A stretch of 63,747 bases of DNA, counting the filler, from Candidatus Rokuibacteriota bacterium (GTDB lineage Bacteria; JAUVQV01; DATDCY01), in the NCBI GenBank assembly GCA_031406795.1. It is 5 parts of 5 records of this genome, joined end to end, with 100 filler letters (N's around TTAATTAATTAA, not from the genome) between each part and the next. Parts side by side here need not be neighbours in the genome. Positions count along the whole stretch, not along the records: positions 42,118 to 63,747 come from JANOHV010000261.1; 4 more parts are not named here. One strand, 5' to 3'. The notes beneath the pieces are model-generated. The model made no database searches and had not been told where the DNA came from. It saw only the letters and a program-made list of their open reading frames with translations. Shown here piece after piece: positions 13,249-55,646 of this stretch. How positions within the stretch are numbered: position 1 is the stretch's first letter; every line of letters begins with the position of its first letter. A program made the translations under genes and the position numbers.

Positions 13249-14079
13249 ATGGCACGCAAGGGCAACGTTTTCCTGATGGCGGGGGTTCTCGCACTGGCGT
13301 TGTGCGCCGCGGGCGCGGTTCCGGGCCAGGCGAAGGTCGCGCTCAAGGGCGAGGACTGCGCGAAGTGTCACGAACAGCAACCGGCGGACATCGAGGCGGG
13401 CGGCGGCAAGCACAAGTCCGAGATCAGCTGCCAGGACTGCCACGCCGGCCACCGTCCGGTCTCCAAGAACAACATCCCCAAGTGCAGCGACTGCCACGAG
13501 GGCGAAGAGCACTTCAAGCTGCCCAACTGCCTCGGCTGCCACAAGAACCCGCACACCCCGAAGAACATCTCGTTCGACAAGAAGCAGACCGCGCCCTGTC
13601 TGACCTGCCACAAGGAGCAGATCAAGCAACTCACGGAGTTTCCGAGCAAGCACACGCAGCAGGCCTGCTCGTTCTGTCACGACGTCCACGGCAAGAAGCC
13701 CGCCTGCACCCAGTGCCACAAGCCGCACGCCCCGACGATGACGGCGTCGGAGTGCTCGACCTGCCACCGCGCCCACCAGCCGAAGAACGTCGTGTACCCG
13801 GCGACCGTAGCGAACGCCCAGTGCGGCGCCTGCCACAAGAAGCCGGCCACGCTGATCGCGGCGACGTCGACCCGCCACGCGAAGGTCGCCTGCGTGCAGT
13901 GCCACAAGGACAAACACAAGATGGTCCCGAACTGCAACCAGTGCCACCAGGTCAAGCATCCGGCCGGCATCCTGCAGAAGTTCCCCAATTGCCTGACGTG
14001 CCACAACCACCCGCATGACTTGAACAACTTCGCGGCGGCCAAGCCCGCGGCGGCGCCGGCGGCTCCGGCGACGAGGTAA
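13249..14079 (+). CDS. Periplasmic dodecaheme c-type cytochrome
   Basis: Signal peptide plus 12 CxxCH motifs. Confidence 0.93.
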   Translation: MARKGNVFLMAGVLALALCAAGAVPGQAKVALKGEDCAKCHEQQPADIEAGGGKHKSEISCQDCHAGHRPVSKNNIPKCSDCHEGEEHFKLPNCLGCHKNPHTPKNISFDKKQTAPCLTCHKEQIKQLTEFPSKHTQQACSFCHDVHGKKPACTQCHKPHAPTMTASECSTCHRAHQPKNVVYPATVANAQCGACHKKPATLIAATSTRHAKVACVQCHKDKHKMVPNCNQCHQVKHPAGILQKFPNCLTCHNHPHDLNNFAAAKPAAAPAAPATR

Positions 14080-14125
14080 CCCCCGAACCGGAAGAACTGA
14101 CGGGCGTCGCCTCCAGGTGATGCAG

Positions 14126-14159
14126 GGCCCGCCGGGGAGTCTCCCGGCGGGCCTTTTTT
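14126..14159 (+). terminator. Rho-independent terminator
   Basis: GGCCCGCCGGG-loop-CCCGGCGGGCC followed by TTTTTT. Confidence 0.8.
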
Positions 14160-14755
14160 CATCGGTGTGAGACGAAGGCGGAGCGCTTCGCCAGCGGTCC
14201 CAGTTCGGCGTCGGCCTGGAAGAATTCCTCGTCGATCCGGGCGAGGATCTCCCTGGCCCGGACCGGGTCGGCGGCCGTGTCGACCGCGTCGAACTCCGCC
14301 CAGAGCCGGTCGGCCCGGTTCAGGACCCGGCCGAGCGGTCGCAGACGGTCGGCGAGCGCGGATTGCAGTTCCCGAAGCGACTCCGCCAGGAGCCCGATCT
14401 GGTCGCCGCTGCGCAGGCGCATCGGAAAATTCACCGCGCCGCGCCGCAGGCTCTCGGCGAATCTCTCCATCTTGAAGAGCGGGCCGGCGATACTGTGCGA
14501 GATGAAGATGGTGACCAGCGCGACGATGACGCTGCCGATGATCAGGTAGATCAGCACGGACAGACCGATCATGGGGAGCAGTACTTTCTGCAGGTTGTGC
14601 AGGGTTGTGTAGGCCTGCTTGTAACTGGGCCCGAGATCCTGGTCGAGCGCCCGCCGCAGCGTGTAGAGAAACGACGCGCTGGCCACGGCGATCGCGGCGG
14701 CGACGATGATCATCCAGCGGAGCTGATAGCGTATCCAGATTTCCCGTTCCGACAT
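14159..14755 (-). CDS. Two-TM HAMP-domain membrane protein
   Basis: Two TM helices, then SHSIAGPLFKMERFAESLRRG..LRSGDQIGLLAESL. Confidence 0.8.
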   Translation of the reverse strand: MSEREIWIRYQLRWMIIVAAAIAVASASFLYTLRRALDQDLGPSYKQAYTTLHNLQKVLLPMIGLSVLIYLIIGSVIVALVTIFISHSIAGPLFKMERFAESLRRGAVNFPMRLRSGDQIGLLAESLRELQSALADRLRPLGRVLNRADRLWAEFDAVDTAADPVRAREILARIDEEFFQADAELGPLAKRSAFVSHR

Positions 14756-14766
14756 GATTGCCCCCG

Positions 14767-15270
14767 CTAATAGTCCTGGTGACAGGCCACGCAGAGTGGC
14801 TCAAAACCCTTGATCGGATCCGACATCCTCAGGTAGATGGTCTTGTACCAGGCGGTCTGCGTCCGGCCCTCCTGCTGGAGGTACGTGACCGGCTGGTCCT
14901 GGTAGGCCCGCGTCCTGGAGAGAAACGCCATGTGGGGGTTGTGGCAGGAGCCGCAGGAAACCTTCCCGTCCTCGAGCGGAAGCTCCGCGGGCACGTCGAT
15001 GGTGGTGGGTGAACGACTGGGGTCGACCCCGACCGGGTGCGAGAGGCCGAGCTTCGTCTGGGTGTGGCACTTCATGCAGATCTCCAGAATTTCCACGACG
15101 AAGCTGTGCGGGTCCATCGTTCCGCCGAAGTAGGCGTGACAGCCGACGCAGGCCTCCGCCCCGCTGAAGATCTGGTGCGGGTTCGTCGGCGGCGCGACAT
15201 CCGCGGGGGCCCGGGTCAGCGCAAGAGCGAGAAGCAGGAGGACGAGCACCCCGCTCCGGAGCGCCCTCAT
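14767..15270 (-). CDS. Tetraheme cytochrome c (doubled-CxxCH type)
   Basis: Signal peptide; CVGCH, CMKCH, CGSCHNPH, CVACH; SHPVGVD..ELPLEDGKVSC. Confidence 0.88.
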   Translation of the reverse strand: MRALRSGVLVLLLLALALTRAPADVAPPTNPHQIFSGAEACVGCHAYFGGTMDPHSFVVEILEICMKCHTQTKLGLSHPVGVDPSRSPTTIDVPAELPLEDGKVSCGSCHNPHMAFLSRTRAYQDQPVTYLQQEGRTQTAWYKTIYLRMSDPIKGFEPLCVACHQDY

Positions 15271-45263: not shown

Positions 45264-46943
45264 CTACCAGTCGCTGCCGCGCGCCCTCCCGCCCGGCTGC
45301 CCGCCGTCGATCGAAGCCAGGTAGTTCGCCGCGGCCAGACCCGCCTTGGCACCCGCCCCTTCCGCGACGACGATCTGCTTGTCCGGCTCGTCGGTCACGT
45401 CGCCGGCTGCGAAGAGGCCCGGGACCGAGGTCGACTGATCGCGGTTGACCAGGATCTCCCCCTGGGCGTTCAGCGGCACGAGCGCCGCAACCGGTCCGCT
45501 GTTGGGAATCAGCCCGATTTCCAGAAACGCGCCGTCCACGGACAACTGCTGTTGGGTTCCCCCATCCACCGACTCGAGGCGGACACCGGTCAGTTCCTGG
45601 ACCCCGATGAACTCCACGACCCTCGTCGCGGGGTGGAGCATGACCTTGGGGTGATCTGAGATTCCGGCCTGCAGAATGGCGTCGGCCTGCCAGTCGGGCA
45701 GCGGGTTGACCAGATGGATTTCCGCGGCGTAGCGCACCAGATCCCTGGCCGCCGTGAAGGCCGAATTCCCTCCCCCGATCACGGCGACCCGTTTTCCGGT
45801 GTAGAGCGGCGCGTCGCAGGTCGCGCAGAACGCTATGCCGCGCCCGAGGAGACCGGCCTCGCCCGGCACACCCAGGGTGCGATACTGTTTTCCCGCGCAA
45901 TAGATCAGGGTGCGGCCCCTGAAGTCGGTACCGTCCTCGACACGGGCGACGAACGCATCGCCCTGGCGTTCGATCGCCGAGACTCTGGTGTGAAGCGATT
46001 CGGCGATCTGGTAGTGCTCCATGTGGGCCCTGAACATCACGGCGAGATCGTGCCCGCCGATTCTCCTGACTCCCAGCCAGTTCTCGATCGCCGCGGTGTC
46101 GGAAATCTGTCCGCCCAGGCGGTCGCCGACGATCAGGACATCCAGCCCCTTGCGCACGGCGTAAATCGCTGCCGACATCGCGGCCGGCCCCGCCCCGACG
46201 ACGATCGCGTCGTATACGTGGCCGGGTACCGGGGCAAGCACCCGGCTTGCTCCCGAACGCGCGCGTGCTAACGCCTCCAATTCCTCGAAGACGTCGGGAG
46301 CGGCGATGCGGGTGATTTCGAGCACGGTCTCTTCAGGTGTGAGCAGCCCCTGGAAAGCCGGGCGTCCGTTGACGACGACCAGGGGAACCGCCCGGACGTC
46401 ATAGGCTCTGGCGCGGCCGGGGAACTCGTCCGACACCACGACGTCCGCCCGAACCTTGTCGTTGACCATGGCCATCTGGCAGGCCAGATGCGCCACACGC
46501 GGGCAGACCGGGCAGGTCAGGGTGACGAACACCTCGATGTGCGTCGGTGTGTCGATCCGCCTGACCCAGTCTTCAAGAGCCGGGGCGAGGCCCGAGCGGC
46601 CGTTGCCGACCATCAGCACCGCTTCGATCAACGTAGAGAACTCGTGGCCGGCCGCAACTCCATAGAAACGCAGCCCGAAATCCCGCTTGCCGAGGATGGC
46701 CGTGCAGGGTGCCTCATCGACTGCATACCGGCTGGCGATTTCCCGGTCTGATTCCACATCGTAGACTTCGAGCGAGATCCGGCTCGAGAGCTTCACGACA
46801 TCTTCGAGCAACCGCCGCTGGTCTTTCGAGCGGGAGGCCTGTTTGGACGTGAACAAGACGATCTTGACCGGCTCGGGAAGATACTTGTCCAACGAACCGG
46901 CGAGATCGACTGCCTTCTGTCCGGCGTCTTTGGCATCCGTCAT
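45264..46943 (-). CDS. AhpF-like fusion (protein-disulfide oxidoreductase + thioredoxin reductase)
   Basis: GHEFSTL, TLTCPVCP, VGAGPAA, CATCDAP, VIGGGNSA, FAAGDVT. Confidence 0.88.
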   Translation of the reverse strand: MTDAKDAGQKAVDLAGSLDKYLPEPVKIVLFTSKQASRSKDQRRLLEDVVKLSSRISLEVYDVESDREIASRYAVDEAPCTAILGKRDFGLRFYGVAAGHEFSTLIEAVLMVGNGRSGLAPALEDWVRRIDTPTHIEVFVTLTCPVCPRVAHLACQMAMVNDKVRADVVVSDEFPGRARAYDVRAVPLVVVNGRPAFQGLLTPEETVLEITRIAAPDVFEELEALARARSGASRVLAPVPGHVYDAIVVGAGPAAMSAAIYAVRKGLDVLIVGDRLGGQISDTAAIENWLGVRRIGGHDLAVMFRAHMEHYQIAESLHTRVSAIERQGDAFVARVEDGTDFRGRTLIYCAGKQYRTLGVPGEAGLLGRGIAFCATCDAPLYTGKRVAVIGGGNSAFTAARDLVRYAAEIHLVNPLPDWQADAILQAGISDHPKVMLHPATRVVEFIGVQELTGVRLESVDGGTQQQLSVDGAFLEIGLIPNSGPVAALVPLNAQGEILVNRDQSTSVPGLFAAGDVTDEPDKQIVVAEGAGAKAGLAAANYLASIDGGQPGGRARGSDW

Positions 46944-47021
46944 GGTCGCTCCGTCGCGCCGCAAGAAAACTGCGCCGTGCACCAATTTACTCAGGGCGCA
47001 GGCATTGCCCGCAGGCCCGGC

Positions 47022-47507
47022 TCAGTAATCTTCGAGGTGGTACCACTCCGCGTTCTCGAGCCACTGCTCGGGGCGCGAGACGAAGTCGATGATCCCCTCG
47101 ATGATCCGGTAATGCCGGCGCTCCTCGACGGCGATGCGCTCGAACGTCAGCTTCTCGGCGGGGGAGGCAGCGCGCTCGGCGGCGGAGCCGTAAAGCTCCC
47201 AGCTCTTGCGCTCCAGCTCCAGGGCCTTGCGGTAGAGTTCGACCTCGGAGGAGCGCGCACCCGCGGCCCCCTCTTTCTCCCGGATCTCGGCGAAGACGTT
47301 CTTCACCTGGTCGAGCAGCGCGGAGTCCGTGAGCGTGGCGTCCTCATGCGCCTTCATCCGGCGGAACAGATCGTAGTGAATCGTCTCCGCGTCGGCGAGC
47401 ATCAGCAGTATCCTGCTTAAGCCCGCACTGGCGGTCTTCGCCGCGCACTCCCGGTAATAGGCCTCGCCGTCCTTCTCCATCTGCATCGCAAAGCCGTACA
47501 CGTCCAT
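47022..47507 (-). CDS. Rubrerythrin-like ferritin-family protein
   Basis: AMQMEKDGEAYY, LADAETIH, ALELERKS..Y, EERRH. Confidence 0.85.
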   Translation of the reverse strand: MDVYGFAMQMEKDGEAYYRECAAKTASAGLSRILLMLADAETIHYDLFRRMKAHEDATLTDSALLDQVKNVFAEIREKEGAAGARSSEVELYRKALELERKSWELYGSAAERAASPAEKLTFERIAVEERRHYRIIEGIIDFVSRPEQWLENAEWYHLEDY

Positions 47508-47634
47508 CCGTAGCCTCCTCTTCTGGTGATCCGCCAGCAGTATGCCCTCGTTGCCGCGTTCTGGCGAGTCCCCGACACGGCAGGTCCCCGGCGCGCGGCC
47601 TTGCTCTCTCGGGAAGAAGCTCTATCATTCTCCC

Positions 47635-48540
47635 ATGGGGGATGCTCAGGTCACCGCCGCGGCAGGACGGGCGCGTTCCGACGGCGGGACCTCCGCCGTG
47701 CTGGAAGTCGCCGGCCTCTCCAAGTCCTTCGGGAGCGTCCGGGCCGTGGACGCACTGACGTTCGCGCTCGCGGCCGGCGAATTCGTCGGGCTGCTCGGTC
47801 CCAACGGCGCCGGCAAGACCACCACCATCAAGATGCTCACCGGCCTGATGCGGCCCGGCGCCGGCACGATCCGGTACTACGGCCGCGACTTCCTGCGCTT
47901 CCCCCGCGAGGCCAAGCGGGAGATCGGCGTCGTGCAGCAGATCAGCAACCTCGACCGCGATCTGACGGCTCGCGAGAACCTGACCCTCCACGCCATCCTG
48001 CACGGCCTCGGCGGCGCCGGGCGCCGCGATCGGATCGAGGAGGCCCTGCGTTTCGCGGGCCTCGAAGCGGCGGGGGACCGGCCGGTCAGGACCTTCTCCG
48101 GCGGCATGGGCCGGCGCCTCGTCATCGTGCGGGCGCTGCTGCACGAACCGAAGATCCTCTTCCTCGACGAGCCGACGGTCGGCCTCGACCCGCAGATCCG
48201 CCGCGACCTGTGGGACCTGATCATCCGGATCAATCAGTCCCGCAAGACCGCCATCCTGCTGACGACGCATTACATCGAGGAGGCGGAGCGCCTCTGCAGC
48301 CGGGTCCTGATCCTCAACGACGGCCGGCTGGCGGCCGAAGGCTCCCCGGCCGGGCTCAAGCGGGGGCTCGGGAGATTCGTGCTGGAGATCCTGCGCGAGG
48401 AGGGTCTGGAAGAGGTTTTTTTCGAGACCCGCGAGGAGGCGGTCGCCCGGCTGGGCGTCTGCACCACCTCCTGCAAAGTGCGGGAGTCGACCCTGGAGGA
48501 CGTCTTCCTGAAGCTGACCGGCCGGCGGATGGAGCGGTAG
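47635..48540 (+). CDS. ABC transporter ATP-binding protein (NodI/DrrA-like)
   Basis: GPNGAGKTT, FSGGMGRR, FLDEPTVGLDP. Confidence 0.92.
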   Translation: MGDAQVTAAAGRARSDGGTSAVLEVAGLSKSFGSVRAVDALTFALAAGEFVGLLGPNGAGKTTTIKMLTGLMRPGAGTIRYYGRDFLRFPREAKREIGVVQQISNLDRDLTARENLTLHAILHGLGGAGRRDRIEEALRFAGLEAAGDRPVRTFSGGMGRRLVIVRALLHEPKILFLDEPTVGLDPQIRRDLWDLIIRINQSRKTAILLTTHYIEEAERLCSRVLILNDGRLAAEGSPAGLKRGLGRFVLEILREEGLEEVFFETREEAVARLGVCTTSCKVRESTLEDVFLKLTGRRMER

Positions 48541-48550
48541 GGGCGCGACG

Positions 48551-49288
48551 ATGTGGAACGGGGTGCGCGGCGTGCTCTACCGGGAACTGAAGGTCTACTC
48601 CAAACGCGCCGGCAAGCAGCTCCTGGCTTCCTCCATCTCCCCGCTGCTCTTCCTCGTCGCCTTCGGCTGGGGTTTCGGACGGGGAGTGACCATGGAGGGG
48701 GTACCGTACCTGACGTTTCTGATCCCCGGACTCATCGCGATGAGCAGCCTCAACCAGAGCTACGGCATCGCCCAGGAGCTGAACATCTCGCGCTTCTACT
48801 TCCATGTCTTCGACGAGTTCCTGATCGCCCCGGTCACCCCGCTCGGGATCGTGCTCGGGGAGACGCTTTACGGCATGTTCCGGGGACTGTTGAGCGCAGT
48901 GCTCATCCTGCTGATCGCCCTGCCCTTCGGGGTCCCGTTCGCTCCGACGCCGGTGTTTTTCGCGGCGCTGGCTCTGCACACCTTCATCTTCGCCTCGCTC
49001 GGCGTCGCGCTCGCGATGCTTGTGCAGGACCACGCCGGGCAGGCCGCCATCACCAACTTCGTGATCACCCCGATGATCTTCCTCGGCGGCACATTCTTCT
49101 CCCTGGAGCGGCTGCCCTCGCCGCTCCAGCTGGCGGTCTCGCTGCTGCCGCTCTCGCATTCGGTACGGGTCCTCCGCGACGCCTTCCTCGGCAGGGCCAC
49201 CGATCCCGTCCACCTGCCGGTGCTGCTCCTCTTTGCCGGCGGCTGCTTCGCCCTGGCCCTGCTCGCGGTGAAGCGGGTCGAAGCCTGA
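48551..49288 (+). CDS. ABC-2 permease
   Basis: Six-TM pattern, YLTFLIPGL, PMIFLGGTFF. Confidence 0.9.
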   Translation: MWNGVRGVLYRELKVYSKRAGKQLLASSISPLLFLVAFGWGFGRGVTMEGVPYLTFLIPGLIAMSSLNQSYGIAQELNISRFYFHVFDEFLIAPVTPLGIVLGETLYGMFRGLLSAVLILLIALPFGVPFAPTPVFFAALALHTFIFASLGVALAMLVQDHAGQAAITNFVITPMIFLGGTFFSLERLPSPLQLAVSLLPLSHSVRVLRDAFLGRATDPVHLPVLLLFAGGCFALALLAVKRVEA

Positions 49289-49304
49289 GCGGGGCCCGCC
49301 GCCG

Positions 49305-49829
49305 TTATTTGATCACGCCGCACGCCAGACGGGCGCCGCCGCCGCCGAGAGGCGCGGGCGCGTCGGAGTAAGTGTCGCCGCCCGCGTGGATCATCAGGGA
49401 ACGCCCCGCCAGGTCCGCGAGCTTCAGCCGCGGCGCGCCAACCGGCTGCGTGGCCTTCCCGTCTGCGCCCACGGTAAGCGCCGGCAAATCGCCGAGGTGG
49501 CCGACGCCGGAGGGGCCTTCGTGCTTCGCGGTCGCAGCCGGGTCGTAATGCCCGCCCGCCGCCAGGCCGGGAACTCTCTTTCCGTCCTTTTCTCCCGCCG
49601 CGCAGTCCGCGTTCTGGTGGACGTGGAACCCATGCACCCCAGGCGGCAGGTCCGTGAGCTCCGGCGTGAGCACCAGCCCGTTCGGCCCCTCGGTGATCGA
49701 CACCGAGCCGATTGCCTTGCCGACCCCCTGCTCATCGACCAGGTTCATCTGCACGACGGTGCCTTCTGCGAACGCCCTGCCCGTGAAGACCAGCGCCGCG
49801 ACAGCCACAACTGCCAGTGCCTTTCTCAT
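49305..49829 (-). CDS. sodC: Cu/Zn superoxide dismutase
   Basis: Signal peptide; [40 protein letters not shown]. Confidence 0.95.
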
Positions 49830-50024
49830 GCCAGACCCTCCCCCGTTGGTTGCCTTTGAATATAAACCTTTGAAAAGCCTTTGGCACCTCCTGACCGCCG
49901 ACCCTGAGCGCGATCGCCGGGTGACGCCGCGGGGAAAAAGATTTATGGTATGGTCAGCACTCTCACACGGAGCCGGGGCCTGAGGCCAGTGCCCCGGCGA
50001 AATTCCACGGCCGGAGGAGGACTC

Positions 50025-50708
50025 ATGAGCACGATTCGTGTCCTGTCCCGAAGCGACGCCCCGTTCCGCGACCGGCGTGAGGCCGGAATTCTGCTCGCCC
50101 GCGAGCTGGAGGCCTATCGCGCCCGGCGGCCCGTCGTTCTCGGCATCCCCCGCGGAGGCGTCGTCGTCGCGGAGCAGATCGCCGTCGGCCTCGACGCCGA
50201 ACTCGACATCGTGCTCGCGCGAAAGATCGGCGCCCCGGGCAATCCCGAGCTCGCGATCGGGGCCGTCGCCGAGGACGGGCATCTGATCCTCGACGAGCGC
50301 ATCCGGATGCGGCTCGGGGTGTCGCAGCAGTTCGTCGCCCAGCAGCAGGCCCGCCAGGTCGAAGAGATCGCACGGCGCGTCGCCCTCTTCCGCGCCGTGC
50401 GTCCCAAGATCCCGCTCCAGGGCCGGGTGGTGATCGTCGCCGACGACGGGCTGGCGACCGGGGCCACGATGGAGGCGGCGCTGTGGGCCGTTCACCGCGA
50501 GCGACCGGGACACCTCGTCATCGCGGTGCCGGTGGGCGCGGCCGATACCATCGAGCGGCTGGCCGGACAAGCCGACGAGTTGCTCTGCCTTCAGGCGCCG
50601 GAGGACTTCGGCGCCGTCGGGAGGTTCTTCGTCCGGTTCGACCAGACTACCGACGAAGAGGTCGTCGAGATTCTCCGGAGCCGGCGCGGCACGGGGAAGG
50701 AGACCTGA
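50025..50708 (+). CDS. Phosphoribosyltransferase family protein
   Basis: [38 protein letters not shown]. Confidence 0.9.
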
Positions 50709-50886
50709 CGGTCATTTCGCGAGACTCCTGCTCGCTGGCCGCAACGGAGCCCTTGCGGCCGGCCCGACGAGGAACTATCATCCAGTGGCAATCCATCGGT
50801 AGTCGCCACAACCCCGGTTCCGGCGGCGGGCGAACAGAGCCCGGCAGCTTTGCGAATCGGTGGAGCAACGAAGCAAGGAGGCTGAC

Positions 50887-51192
50887 ATGGAGAGGAAAGA
50901 CCTGAAGAAGCTGCTCGCAGGATTGAGCATCGCGGGCCTTGTGGGGGCCGGCATCAGCACGGTGGCGTTCGTCCAGCCGGCCGCCGCTGCCTGAAGCGGC
51001 ATGCCCCAGGGTGCAGTTAGCACCCCGGCCGTCCCGGAAGTCACGGTCCTCGTTGTCAATCAGAAGCCCGTCAAGAACATCCAGGAGCTGAAGCTGATCC
51101 TGGATACGCTCACGCCGGGCGCGAATGTCGCGATCACCTTCCAGAGCCAGGGAAAGAACCTGGCGATCGAGGGCGTGATCAAGCAGAAGTAA
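50887..51192 (+). CDS. Putative selenoprotein: SbtA/selenobiotic-like leader, Sec36 (UGA 50992-50994), PDZ-like tail
   Basis: AAGGAGG RBS; MERKDLKKLLAGLSIAGLVGAG..QPAAAA-U-SGMPQ..VVNQKPVKNIQEL..LTPGANVAITF; open to TAA at 51192. Confidence 0.75.
51009..51025 (+). promoter_or_regulatory. Candidate bacterial SECIS hairpin
   Basis: GGGTGC-AGTTA-GCACCC starting 14 nt after the in-frame UGA. Confidence 0.6.
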
Positions 51193-51248
51193 GATCGTCG
51201 GCCGCACCTGGCCCGCCAACCGGACCAGGTGCGGCGGGAGGCGCATTC

Positions 51249-52022
51249 TTGACGATCTTCCTCATCAAGTCCCTGCTTTCACTGTTGCTGCTGTTCGGCG
51301 TCGCGGTGAGCGCATATGCCATGCTCGAGGCCTGCGGTCGCGGGGCGGCGGTGGCCTCCGCCGAACGCTTCAAGCGGATCCATCGGGTTGCCGGCTATTC
51401 CTCCCTGCTGCTCTTCGCTCTGCTCGCCTATCTCTGCATCGGCTTCGCCGCGGCGGCGAAAACGGAACCCTCCCCGCGGGCGGCACTGCACAGCGCGCTC
51501 GCGTATTCCGTCATCGCGCTGTTCGTCCTGAAGCTGCTCTTCCTGCGTGTCTATCGCCAGTTCAACGTCCAGGCGCGGATCTTCGGCATCGTCATTTCAG
51601 TCGCCATATTCGTGCTGGTGGGTGTCTCGGCTGGTCACTACCTCACCGTGAGCGGATTGGGGCGGGACCTGACCACGGACAAGAGCGCGTACTTCGAACT
51701 GCGAGGGCCGCTGCTGCGCGTCGTCCGGACCGCTATCCCGCCCCCGGCGGGAATCCGGACCGACTCGCTGAGCATCGCACGCGGCCGGACCATGTTCCTG
51801 GCGCGTTGCGCGGGCTGCCATGACGCGCTGAGCGCAAACATGATCGTGGGTCCGGGGCTCAAGGGTCTGTTCAAGAACGCCGCGCTCCCGGTCAGCAGGC
51901 ATCCCGCAACCGCCGAAAGCGTCCGGTTCCAGCTGCGACAGGCCATGCGCGGGATGCCCTCTTTCGACTACCTCACCGAAGAGGAGATGAGCGACCTCAT
52001 CGCGTACCTCAACACCTTGTGA
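51249..52022 (+). CDS. Four-TM membrane protein with C-terminal monoheme cytochrome c
   Basis: TM helices with His (IHRVAGY, ALHSAL); CAGCH, VGPGLKGL, MPSF. Confidence 0.8.
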   Translation: MTIFLIKSLLSLLLLFGVAVSAYAMLEACGRGAAVASAERFKRIHRVAGYSSLLLFALLAYLCIGFAAAAKTEPSPRAALHSALAYSVIALFVLKLLFLRVYRQFNVQARIFGIVISVAIFVLVGVSAGHYLTVSGLGRDLTTDKSAYFELRGPLLRVVRTAIPPPAGIRTDSLSIARGRTMFLARCAGCHDALSANMIVGPGLKGLFKNAALPVSRHPATAESVRFQLRQAMRGMPSFDYLTEEEMSDLIAYLNTL

Positions 52023-54373: not shown

Positions 54374-55414
54374 TCACAGAAAGCACTGCGGATCGTCCGC
54401 GCAGAGGTCCTCCTCGCCGCGCGCCGCCGACGACGCCCACGCGATCGCGCGGCAGCCGCGACAGGCGGCCCAGCGGGGACACGTCCCGCACCGCCCGCGA
54501 TATTCCTCGCGGCTGCGCAGTCGCGCCAGCACCGGGGACGTCGCCCAGAGCTCGCGGATCGAGTCGCGGCGGACGTTCCCGATCGCCACGGGGAGGCGGC
54601 GACAGGGCAGGATCGTCCCGTCCTCCAGCACCGTAATCCCGGCGAGGCCGGCGGCGCAACCGCCCGCGGGGATCGAGAGCCCGGGGTCGATCGCGGGCGG
54701 CCAGAGCACGCAGGAGGCCAGCGGGTCGCCGGTCACGAACTCCAGCCCCGGCACCGCGGCGGCGGCGATCTCCCGGTAGACCCGCCCGGTTTCCTCCGCG
54801 CTGAGCGCCGCCTCCCGCAATTCGCAACCCCGGCCGGCGGGGACGATGCGCGCGAAGCCGAGGCGCTGCACACCGCGCGCCGCCACCAGCTGCGCGAGGG
54901 GCAGGACCTCCGCAGCGTTCAGGCGCGACAGGGTCATGTTTGCCGTGACGGTCAGACCCGCGGCGATGAGGTGGTCGACACCGCGCAGCGCCGCGTGAAA
55001 GGACCCCGGGCCGCGGATGTCGTCGTGAACCGGTTCGCGCCCCTCGAGGCTCACCTGAACGGCGCGCACCCCGAGGTCGGCAAGCCGCCGCGCCGCAGCC
55101 TCCCCGACGAGCGTGCCGTTGCTCAGAACCGCGACCGCGAAACCCGCCTCGTGGAAATCGCGAACGATCTCGAACAGATCGCGGCGGAGGAAGGGCTCCC
55201 CCCCGGTCAGGCTCACGGCGGGGGCGAAAGCGAGCCCGTAGGTCTCCTGCCAGGCCTGGATCGTGTCGCGGACTTCGGCGATGAGATCGCGGACCTCGGC
55301 GGTGGTCAGTTCCTCACCCGCCGCTTCCGTCTGGTAGCAGTGGCGGCAGCGCAGATTGCAGCGTGCGGTGAGGTGCAGCTGCACGAAGAAGCTCAACGGA
55401 TCGGTGAGCGCCAT
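54374..55414 (-). CDS. Radical SAM/SPASM domain enzyme, probable peptide maturase
   Basis: CNLRCRHC, TGGEP; SPASM Cys: GCAAG..PCRRL..CGTC..CRGCR..PQC. Confidence 0.93.
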   Translation of the reverse strand: MALTDPLSFFVQLHLTARCNLRCRHCYQTEAAGEELTTAEVRDLIAEVRDTIQAWQETYGLAFAPAVSLTGGEPFLRRDLFEIVRDFHEAGFAVAVLSNGTLVGEAAARRLADLGVRAVQVSLEGREPVHDDIRGPGSFHAALRGVDHLIAAGLTVTANMTLSRLNAAEVLPLAQLVAARGVQRLGFARIVPAGRGCELREAALSAEETGRVYREIAAAAVPGLEFVTGDPLASCVLWPPAIDPGLSIPAGGCAAGLAGITVLEDGTILPCRRLPVAIGNVRRDSIRELWATSPVLARLRSREEYRGRCGTCPRWAACRGCRAIAWASSAARGEEDLCADDPQCFL

Positions 55415-55523: not shown

Positions 55524-55646
55524 TCACGATTTTCAGGAGTTTCACTTGCGGCAGACCTTGACCGACTGCTCACTCAGAGCCTTCTTCAGCGCCGTCCAGT
55601 GCGCCGCTTCCTGCTCCCGCGCCTGCTTGCTGATTGCCTTCTTCAT
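55524..55646 (-). CDS. Putative selenocysteine-containing RiPP precursor peptide (40 aa, CxxUxxU core)
   Basis: SD AGGAGGTGAT; MKKAISKQAREQEAAHWTALKKALSEQSVKVCRK-U-NS-U-KS-stop; in-frame TGA at 55544, 55535, 55526. Confidence 0.8.

Follow-up and report, generated by a model that had tools for sequence, protein, structure and literature searches.

We found that a gene at positions 50887-51192 (+) of the window, by which we mean the whole 63.7-kb stretch of DNA analyzed here, very probably encodes a single product that contains selenocysteine (Sec), inserted at an in-frame UGA. The gene is best read from its sequence as a derivative of the SbtA precursor family in which an SbtA-type leader and a Sec codon are followed by what sequence profiles and structure prediction identify as the C-terminal half of a bacterial PDZ domain of the HtrA type. 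On balance we consider it probable that this is an exported Sec protein of 101 residues, derived from SbtA and modified in trans by the radical SAM enzyme SbtM. The leader family and the PDZ domain are each known; their combination is apparently undescribed.

Gene layout and decoding of the in-frame UGA

The frame at 50887-51192 comprises 101 codons, with a sole in-frame TGA at codon 36 (50992-50994) and 65 sense codons beyond it, and ends in a TAA stop codon (51190-51192). With the TGA read as U, its translation is MERKDLKKLLAGLSIAGLVGAGISTVAFVQPAAAA-U-SGMPQGAVSTPAVPEVTVLVVNQKPVKNIQELKLILDTLTPGANVAITFQSQGKNLAIEGVIKQK-stop. A Shine-Dalgarno sequence, AAGGAGG (50875-50881), lies 5 nt upstream of the ATG at 50887. 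The first 35 codons (50887-50991) specify a signal-peptide-like leader of the SbtA family with a charged start (MERKDLKK), 21 hydrophobic residues and the sequence QPAAAA. The Sec codon is followed by a linker, SGMPQGAVSTPAVP (codons 37-50, 50995-51036), that carries a SECIS-like hairpin (GGGUGC-AGUUA-GCACCC, 51009-51025), and then by the predicted half-PDZ domain (codons 51-101, 51037-51189). An earlier note on this DNA had listed the Shine-Dalgarno sequence, the ATG, the in-frame TGA, the 65 further sense codons and a hairpin 14 nt past the UGA, and all of these were present in the sequence. Beyond the stop codon there is a G+C-rich inverted repeat with 15-nt arms and without a T run (51201-51235), a possible terminator; a scan for consensus terminators returned none.

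Codon usage indicated that both sides of the TGA are coding in the same frame. Third-position G+C was 0.86 on either side, in a window with an overall G+C content of 67.6%. Codon log-odds, derived from 11 long window genes, were positive in the gene frame alone (leader +12.4, tail +42.3) and negative or near zero in the five other frames. When all six frames of the window were scanned for TGA codons flanked on each side by 30 stop-free codons of coding-like composition, only two such sites were obtained, one of which was codon 36. The other, at 13677-13679 on the minus strand, has an odd, Trp/Cys-rich translation and matched no Pfam family.

Public gene calls give a different picture of this family. 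A protein search with the read-through product yielded eight proteins out of 32 candidates, each of 60-65 residues and matching the tail only, and all eight were ORFs starting after the TGA. The tail is recorded publicly as a 63-aa ORF, which one source names an "S1-C subfamily serine protease". A 104-aa database protein (P0031) has leader and tail without a stop, separated by an unrelated His/Arg-rich middle of 37 residues, and we suspect that this joining reflects a frame error. Family members were also retrieved as DNA, from the metagenome loci L003-L007, from L010, on a 1.46-Mb contig labeled as an uncultured Candidatus Rokubacteria bacterium, and as a distant copy, L042, in genome G003; two further loci from this retrieval (L008 and L009) are ordinary HtrA-type PDZ loci. 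Leader, TGA at the homologous codon and tail occupied a single frame in all seven copies that reach upstream (the window, L010, L003, L004, L005, L006 and L042; L007 begins at residue 41 and was excluded). The copies that conserve the TGA share 48-72% protein identity, and the orthologue in genome G001 is 69% identical to the window gene; the family comprises at least two clades at 48% identity and several 50%-identity clusters. The earlier note had foreseen that homologs might stop at this codon and the tail ORF occur independently. This was not the case, as every DNA copy reaching upstream carries the leader and the in-frame TGA. The search for homologs with Cys in place of Sec that had been proposed there found none, either among the eight protein matches or among the 11 representatives inspected out of 49.

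Two further observations bear on how the UGA is read. Loci L003, L004 and L006 terminate this same gene with TGA, which is thus an ordinary stop codon in these relatives, and a reassignment of the genetic code in the lineage was therefore ruled out. In L010, no in-frame ATG, GTG or TTG occurs from the TGA until codon 91, so that its tail can be made solely via read-through. Upstream of the main ATG, each of the six copies compared (the window and five relatives) has a Shine-Dalgarno or purine-rich site. In five of these six, an in-frame ATG is found 2-5 codons past the TGA, and no Shine-Dalgarno sequence was seen upstream of the internal ATG in the copies examined.

We compared substitution rates across the three parts of the gene by the Nei-Gojobori method, using six pairs. 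The leader had dN/dS values of 0.09-0.35 with dS of 0.43-0.89, and the tail 0.14-0.29 with dS of 0.25-0.79, which points to purifying selection on both. For the 14-codon linker, dN/dS ranged from 0.25 to 2.97 and dS from 0.11 to 0.43, and linker dS was below that of the flank in 8 of the 12 comparisons with either flank. Low dS together with high dN/dS suggests that the constraint on the linker acts on the RNA and not on the peptide, for which protein-level constraint appears weak.

The hairpin within this linker was kept in all six aligned copies, and in L004 it shows one compensatory pair (U-A to C-G). Its GGUGC begins 15 nt past the UGA and, with the rest of the hairpin, encodes G-A-V-S-T; the core stem, G-Y-G-C/G-C-R-C, is common to the window hairpin and to canonical SbtA hairpins. 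Its folding energy was unremarkable (z = -0.77 over 86 nt and -1.9 over 44 nt). A covariance model trained on 10 canonical SbtA hairpins only, and of low information for DNA of 68% G+C, placed it at rank 7 of 47 (10.9 bits, E 0.33). Across the window, Rfam at gathering thresholds gave no match and ARAGORN found nothing. The hairpin by itself is not statistically distinctive, and its support is purely comparative. Its conservation and its position 14-15 nt downstream are consistent with a role in decoding the UGA as Sec.

SbtA leader and half-PDZ tail

The earlier note had likened the leader to SbtA precursors, and profile searches bear this out. Residues 1-22 matched positions 1-22 of the 27 in TIGR04081, the NCBIfam model named [quoted passage not shown], with 40.7 bits against a cut-off of 30.5, and the leader of the G001 orthologue scored 46.1 bits. 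Over residues 1-35 the leader is 60% identical to that of Malonomonas rubra SbtA, and 12 of the first 13 residues match. We take the leader to resemble a Tat motif as well, with R-K in place of R-R; among its NCBIfam matches at E <= 0.1 there was no Tat model.

The surroundings of the Sec residue depart from the canonical pattern. Canonical SbtA copies read S-G-U-G-G or S-G-U-G-A, whereas the window has A-A-U-S-G, with no Ser ahead of the Sec, as the earlier note had pointed out; the Sec thus lies outside a Gly-rich (S)-G-U/C-G-(G) core. Among the seven copies, the residues leading up to the Sec are L-A-A-U in five, A-A-A-U in the window and M-S-G-U in G003. The product also differs from the low-complexity short peptides of the SbtA family in that its 51-residue C-terminal region is predicted to fold. 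Homology to canonical SbtA extends from the leader across the Sec codon as far as the SECIS, and no further.

The resemblance of the tail to half a PDZ domain, which the earlier note had proposed, was backed by profile, cluster, fold-prediction and structure-comparison results. At the sequence level, 12 of 14 family members matched the Pfam profile PDZ_2 (PF13180) at E <= 1 over positions 31-76 of 80, with all scores under the gathering cut-off (best 25.2 bits, against 27); the window protein itself had no Pfam PDZ match at that threshold. NCBIfam gave weak matches of the tail to DegQ/DegP (E 0.003-0.016). The ten best chains in a profile search of the PDB were all Deg/HtrA-family proteases (E 0.0076-0.019), and the nearest ESM Atlas clusters were all small PDZ proteins, with a score of 0.95. 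A motif of the tail, N-x-K-P-V-K-N-x-x-E-L, is almost the same in L008, one of the ordinary metagenomic HtrA-type PDZ loci.

Structure prediction gave a consistent picture. AlphaFold2 modeled the tail alone as strand-strand-helix-strand-strand with a pLDDT of 76.3; for the whole protein the pLDDT was 53.2, too low for use. In a Foldseek search with the tail, ranks 1-12 were all PDZ domains, of HtrA, DegP, DegQ, RseP and YlbL types, aligned over 44-51 columns of targets of 86-127 residues (rmsd 1.3-2.6 Å, E 0.047-0.096). Foldseek reported nothing at E <= 0.001, and here the PDZ reading leans on consistent ranks and not on significance. Because sequence profiles, ESM Atlas clusters, the AlphaFold2 fold and the Foldseek ranks agree, we assign the tail, on modeled as well as sequence grounds, to the C-terminal half of an HtrA-type PDZ domain. 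It is not a complete domain, as PDZ_2 positions 1-30 are absent. In a full domain, this stretch would presumably supply the carboxylate-binding loop along with the ligand-binding strand, and for a half domain without that loop the usual PDZ peptide binding should not be assumed.

SbtM, export and alternative readings

A tblastn search of the window with the SbtM of G001 found one gene, at 54374-55414 (-), with 31% identity. It encodes a 346-aa radical SAM/SPASM protein, lies 3.2 kb from the selenoprotein gene and had been missed by the earlier note. Its protein scored 139.9 bits on TIGR04082, the SbtM model, against a cut-off of 350, aligned to model positions 199-503 only, and reached the cut-off of no NCBIfam model. 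With a second, non-SbtM enzyme of G003 it shares 79% identity, compared with about 31% for true SbtMs. As its orthologue coexists with a true SbtM in G003, we rejected it as a stand-in for SbtM, and the window gene is in this sense an "orphan". The claim that no SbtM is adjacent thus stood and could be widened: with a true SbtM as tblastn query, none was found across the 63.7-kb window, whose only radical SAM/SPASM gene belongs to another family, and none was found in the flanks of L003-L007 and L010.

Related genomes suggest where the enzyme may be encoded. G001 has an SbtM (662.5 bits, cut-off 350) about 292 kb from its PDZ-type gene, together with genes for tRNA-Sec (Rfam 69 bits; anticodon TCA by ARAGORN), SelB (352.6 bits) and SelA (546.8 bits). 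It carries three SbtA-leader genes: one of PDZ type, one of Cys type with S-G-C-S-G and S-G-C-G-G sites, and one of Sec type. None of the three adjoins SbtM, so that action in trans would be the rule in this genome. G003 has SelA and SbtM (590.2 bits), and the sole TIGR04081 leader found in it belongs to the PDZ-tailed gene, whose site (...G-A-M-S-G-U-G-G...) is canonical. Among genomes G001-G005, the PDZ type is present in G001 and G003, and SbtM in G001, G003 and G005, where it is a fragment at a contig end; neither was found in G002 or G004. In a search of 150 G001 relatives the tail occurred in just 2 genomes, again G001 and G003, and a wider genome scan with alignment A6 found none among 304 candidates. 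The gene product is thus probably an SbtM substrate served in trans, in a co-occurrence sample of two genomes. Since SbtM is present in both related genomes carrying this gene type, the readings of the protein as modified and as exported are both strengthened.

We also compared the surroundings of the gene. Between the window and seven other loci, only the gene itself is common, with the exception of an ABC ATPase that is 36% identical and differently placed in L010, and a conserved neighborhood was ruled out by this comparison. A PEGA-domain gene lies upstream in both L010 and L003.

We propose the following sequence of events. In this gene, the usual Gly-rich repeat core of an SbtA precursor would have given way to the half PDZ of HtrA type. 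SbtM, presumably encoded elsewhere in the genome, would recognize the conserved leader in the cytoplasm and convert the Ala35-Sec36 pair into a 5-selenooxazole. The leader would then serve as an export signal and be cut at or just before the Sec, at an A-x-A site. The mature periplasmic protein would carry the selenium group on a flexible N-terminal tether of about 14 residues, ahead of the half-PDZ module. The strand-strand-helix-strand-strand module would associate with a partner or with itself, and a role in soft-metal binding or redox chemistry would fall to the selenium group, by analogy with copper-binding thiooxazole peptides. Whereas reading through the UGA is established by comparing the copies, the later steps are inferred: export is likely, and we lean slightly towards the protein still being modified by SbtM. 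That Ala, not Gly, precedes the Sec in the window copy is an observation against the overall reading, and so are the failure to find a Cys-for-Sec homolog, the unremarkable hairpin statistics, the lack of an Rfam match, the unconserved neighborhood and the uninterrupted P0031.

The main alternative is that the protein is an exported selenoprotein no longer modified by SbtM, its SbtA leader persisting only as an export signal and its free selenol, at the start of the mature protein, acting in redox chemistry or metal binding. In favor of this, A-A-U-S-G has taken over from S-G-U-G-G in the clades of the window and of L010, and the gene never adjoins SbtM, which is missing from the whole window. 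However, the 12 of 13 leader residues shared with Malonomonas across distant lineages far exceed what a generic signal peptide needs, and G001, whose gene is of the A-A-U-S-G type, retains SbtM. Ala before Sec also seems chemically allowed: judging from PMC9204691, the oxazole is built with the backbone carbonyl of the residue ahead of the Sec. We therefore regard this alternative as fairly unlikely. A variant of export in which the signal peptide is of the lipoprotein kind, with Sec instead of Cys as the lipidated residue, so that the protein is anchored in the membrane through selenium, seems to us decidedly improbable. The L-A-A-U of five of the seven copies and the M-S-G-U of G003 would fit what we take to be the lipobox pattern, and lipobox-like sites with an ordinary Cys (A-A-G-C and V-I-G-C) occur in both remaining SbtA-leader genes of G001. 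On the other hand, the A-A-A-U of the window matches a lipobox badly, the hydrophobic region, with 27 residues between K8 and U36, is long, signal peptidase I would be suited equally well by P-A-x-A-A, and canonical SbtA has G-S-G-U.

Alternatively, the locus may give two products, a 35-residue peptide ending at the UGA and a separate 63-residue tail starting from the ATG at 51001. Gene callers annotate it in this way, all eight database matches being 60-65-aa ORFs that start after the TGA, and the in-frame ATG 2-5 codons past the TGA in five of six copies would allow it. This reading is very hard to reconcile with L010, which lacks an in-frame start until codon 91, with the lack of a Shine-Dalgarno sequence at the internal ATG and with the retention of leader and TGA position together with the tail in all seven copies; moreover, a signal-like peptide of 35 residues without a core has no evident use. 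Least credible of all is a decaying SbtA remnant accidentally fused to a PDZ fragment and without function. A half domain is admittedly an unusual unit and the neighborhood is unconserved, but the low dN/dS of leader (0.09-0.35) and tail (0.14-0.29) over six pairs, and the presence of the family in at least two clades at 48% identity and several 50%-identity clusters, speak against decay.

Within the preferred reading of an exported, SbtA-derived Sec protein, there is a more speculative version, which we hold to be improbable: the end of the signal peptide would coincide with the Sec, leaving a protein that is either anchored through selenium or equipped with a selenooxazole "warhead" on a half PDZ. 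In the latter case, the half PDZ would need a partner or a second copy to complete its fold, the protein would act as a periplasmic selenium-based metal or redox shuttle, and a RiPP enzyme would be acting on a protein and not on a peptide.

Comparison with known systems

The characterized SbtM, from Geobacter lovleyi, acts on a conserved Gly-Cys/Sec motif, where it removes four hydrogens and creates a thio- or selenooxazole, as described in two reports (PMC9204691, PMC11002830), and the conserved motif of SbtA is given as GGUG or Gly-Cys(Sec) (PMC9204691). That report describes the SbtA/SbtM pair as seemingly limited to Geobacter and Desulfobacteria and the role of the selenium peptides in biology as unknown (PMC9204691). 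We found no paper on a fusion of an SbtA leader with a half PDZ, judging the SbtM papers by their titles or abstracts, and nothing relevant on selenocysteine lipoboxes or Rokubacteria selenoproteins.

The gene described here extends the SbtA family beyond the Geobacter and Desulfobacteria groups in print and indicates that precursor and maturase genes can be unlinked. It would also mean that public gene calls systematically split a PDZ-tailed selenoprotein in two at the UGA. With the leader, Sec and SECIS of the family tied to a folded domain, there would be a handle for pull-downs, structures and localization, which the low-complexity SbtA peptides do not offer.

The canonical SbtA loci matched by the leader were those of Malonomonas rubra (L001) and a Desulfosalsimonas MAG (L002). 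In both, SbtM lies directly downstream, within about 0.8 kb, and is 52-53% identical to the G001 enzyme. Malonomonas SbtA has five Sec codons, the first of which is codon 36, and each is followed by a hairpin with the core G-Y-G-C/G-C-R-C. The five-base stem starts 15 nt past the UGA in four of the five hairpins and 17 nt past it in the last; the 15-nt-spaced stems are GGUGC/GCACY in three cases and GGCGC/GCGCU in the first. These hairpins encode G-A-V-S-T after two of the five Sec codons and G-A-V-R-A or G-A-V-G-T after two more. The window gene resembles this system in a leader that passes the SbtA model, in a Sec at codon 36, in the core stem of its hairpin and in a 15-nt spacing that it shares with four Malonomonas hairpins out of five. 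It differs in having one Sec, compared with two to five in canonical precursors, and in lacking the Gly-rich S-G-U-G-G core, a folded half-PDZ tail being predicted in place of the low-complexity repeats. Furthermore, the PDZ-type gene never adjoins SbtM, in contrast to the spacing of about 0.8 kb in Malonomonas and Desulfosalsimonas, and its host is of the Rokubacteria type, whereas Geobacter and Desulfobacteria are the hosts named in PMC9204691.

Two other known systems share single features with the window protein. The sequence and predicted fold of its tail match the last 48 or so residues of the PDZ domains of HtrA, DegP, DegQ and DegS, while the protease domain and PDZ_2 positions 1-30 of those proteins are missing. 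Bufferins and other 5-thiooxazole RiPPs made by MNIO enzymes carry, on a ribosomal product, the same kind of heterocycle that SbtM makes, as outlined in PMC12538549. As such RiPPs bind copper, a metal-binding role for the modified residue would be plausible. The means of making the heterocycle differ, in that MNIOs are oxygen-dependent iron enzymes working with sulfur (PMC12538549), whereas the protein described here would rely on a radical SAM enzyme and selenium.

A small ORF with several TGA codons

The radical SAM/SPASM gene at 54374-55414 (minus strand), whose product is a non-SbtM enzyme, is closely preceded by a conserved 34-codon ORF with an in-frame TGA extension (55524-55646, minus strand). 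The ORF has its own SD and ends in K-V-C-R-K, after which the frame continues as TGA-x-Ser-TGA-Lys-Ser-TGA and is followed by a hairpin with the loop GGUC. The layout was identical in kind in the orthologue from the related genome G003 (locus L045), where the Ser codon between the first two TGAs is TCC versus AGC in the window. A third example, in a genome of 34% G+C (G138, locus L050), reads K-V-C-R-K-TGA-Lys-Ser-TGA-TAG, again with a hairpin, and sits between two tandem paralogues of the radical SAM/SPASM enzyme. None of the NCBIfam models matched the window ORF. With its TGA extension it may encode a hitherto undescribed precursor peptide that contains two selenocysteines and would serve a radical SAM/SPASM maturase other than SbtM.

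Apart from the TGA of the main gene (50887-51192, plus strand), only one in the window, at 13677-13679 on the minus strand, was flanked on either side by sequence of coding-like composition. Translated with read-through, its frame (13368-14804, minus strand) gives a product rich in Trp, Cys and Leu, with a recurring G-x-L-W-x-x-x-Q-x-G-like motif, that was assigned to no Pfam family. This frame may lie antisense to a gene on the plus strand; alternatively, it may encode an odd repeat protein.

Genomic context of the main gene

Fifty-seven nt downstream of the main gene lies a fusion gene (51249-52022, plus strand) whose product has a DUF6529 membrane domain at residues 9-137 and, at its C terminus, a cytochrome c domain spanning residues 176-257. 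The upstream region (45264-50570) holds a group of genes suggestive of oxidative stress: an AhpF-like reductase, a ferritin/rubrerythrin-like ORF, a DrrA/ABC-2 exporter pair and, on the minus strand, a Cu,Zn superoxide dismutase gene. The N-terminal part of the reductase scored 182.4 bits against TIGR02187 (PDO_seleno_TRX), for which the cut-off is 185.

Other SbtA leaders and C-terminal additions

The Rokubacteria-type genome G001 carries additional SbtA-leader genes at about 1360-1578 of L036 (contig C16) and about 1330-1572 of L037 (C15), both on the minus strand and both with a Cys lipobox-like site preceding the core (A-A-G-C, V-I-G-C). A small ORF after its Cys-type gene may encode a molybdate-binding Mop/TOBE protein. 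Midway through its Sec-type gene the frame shifts, possibly because of an assembly indel.

The tail-only database ORFs P0005 and P0008 (63 aa), called "S1-C subfamily serine protease" by one source, are 3′ parts of the main selenoprotein gene type and have no protease domain. A canonical two-Sec SbtA from a Desulfosalsimonas MAG (L002, 7596-7982, plus strand) carries a C-terminal extension of about 70 residues, rich in Gln, Glu and Lys, so the PDZ type is not alone in having an addition at the C terminus of SbtA.
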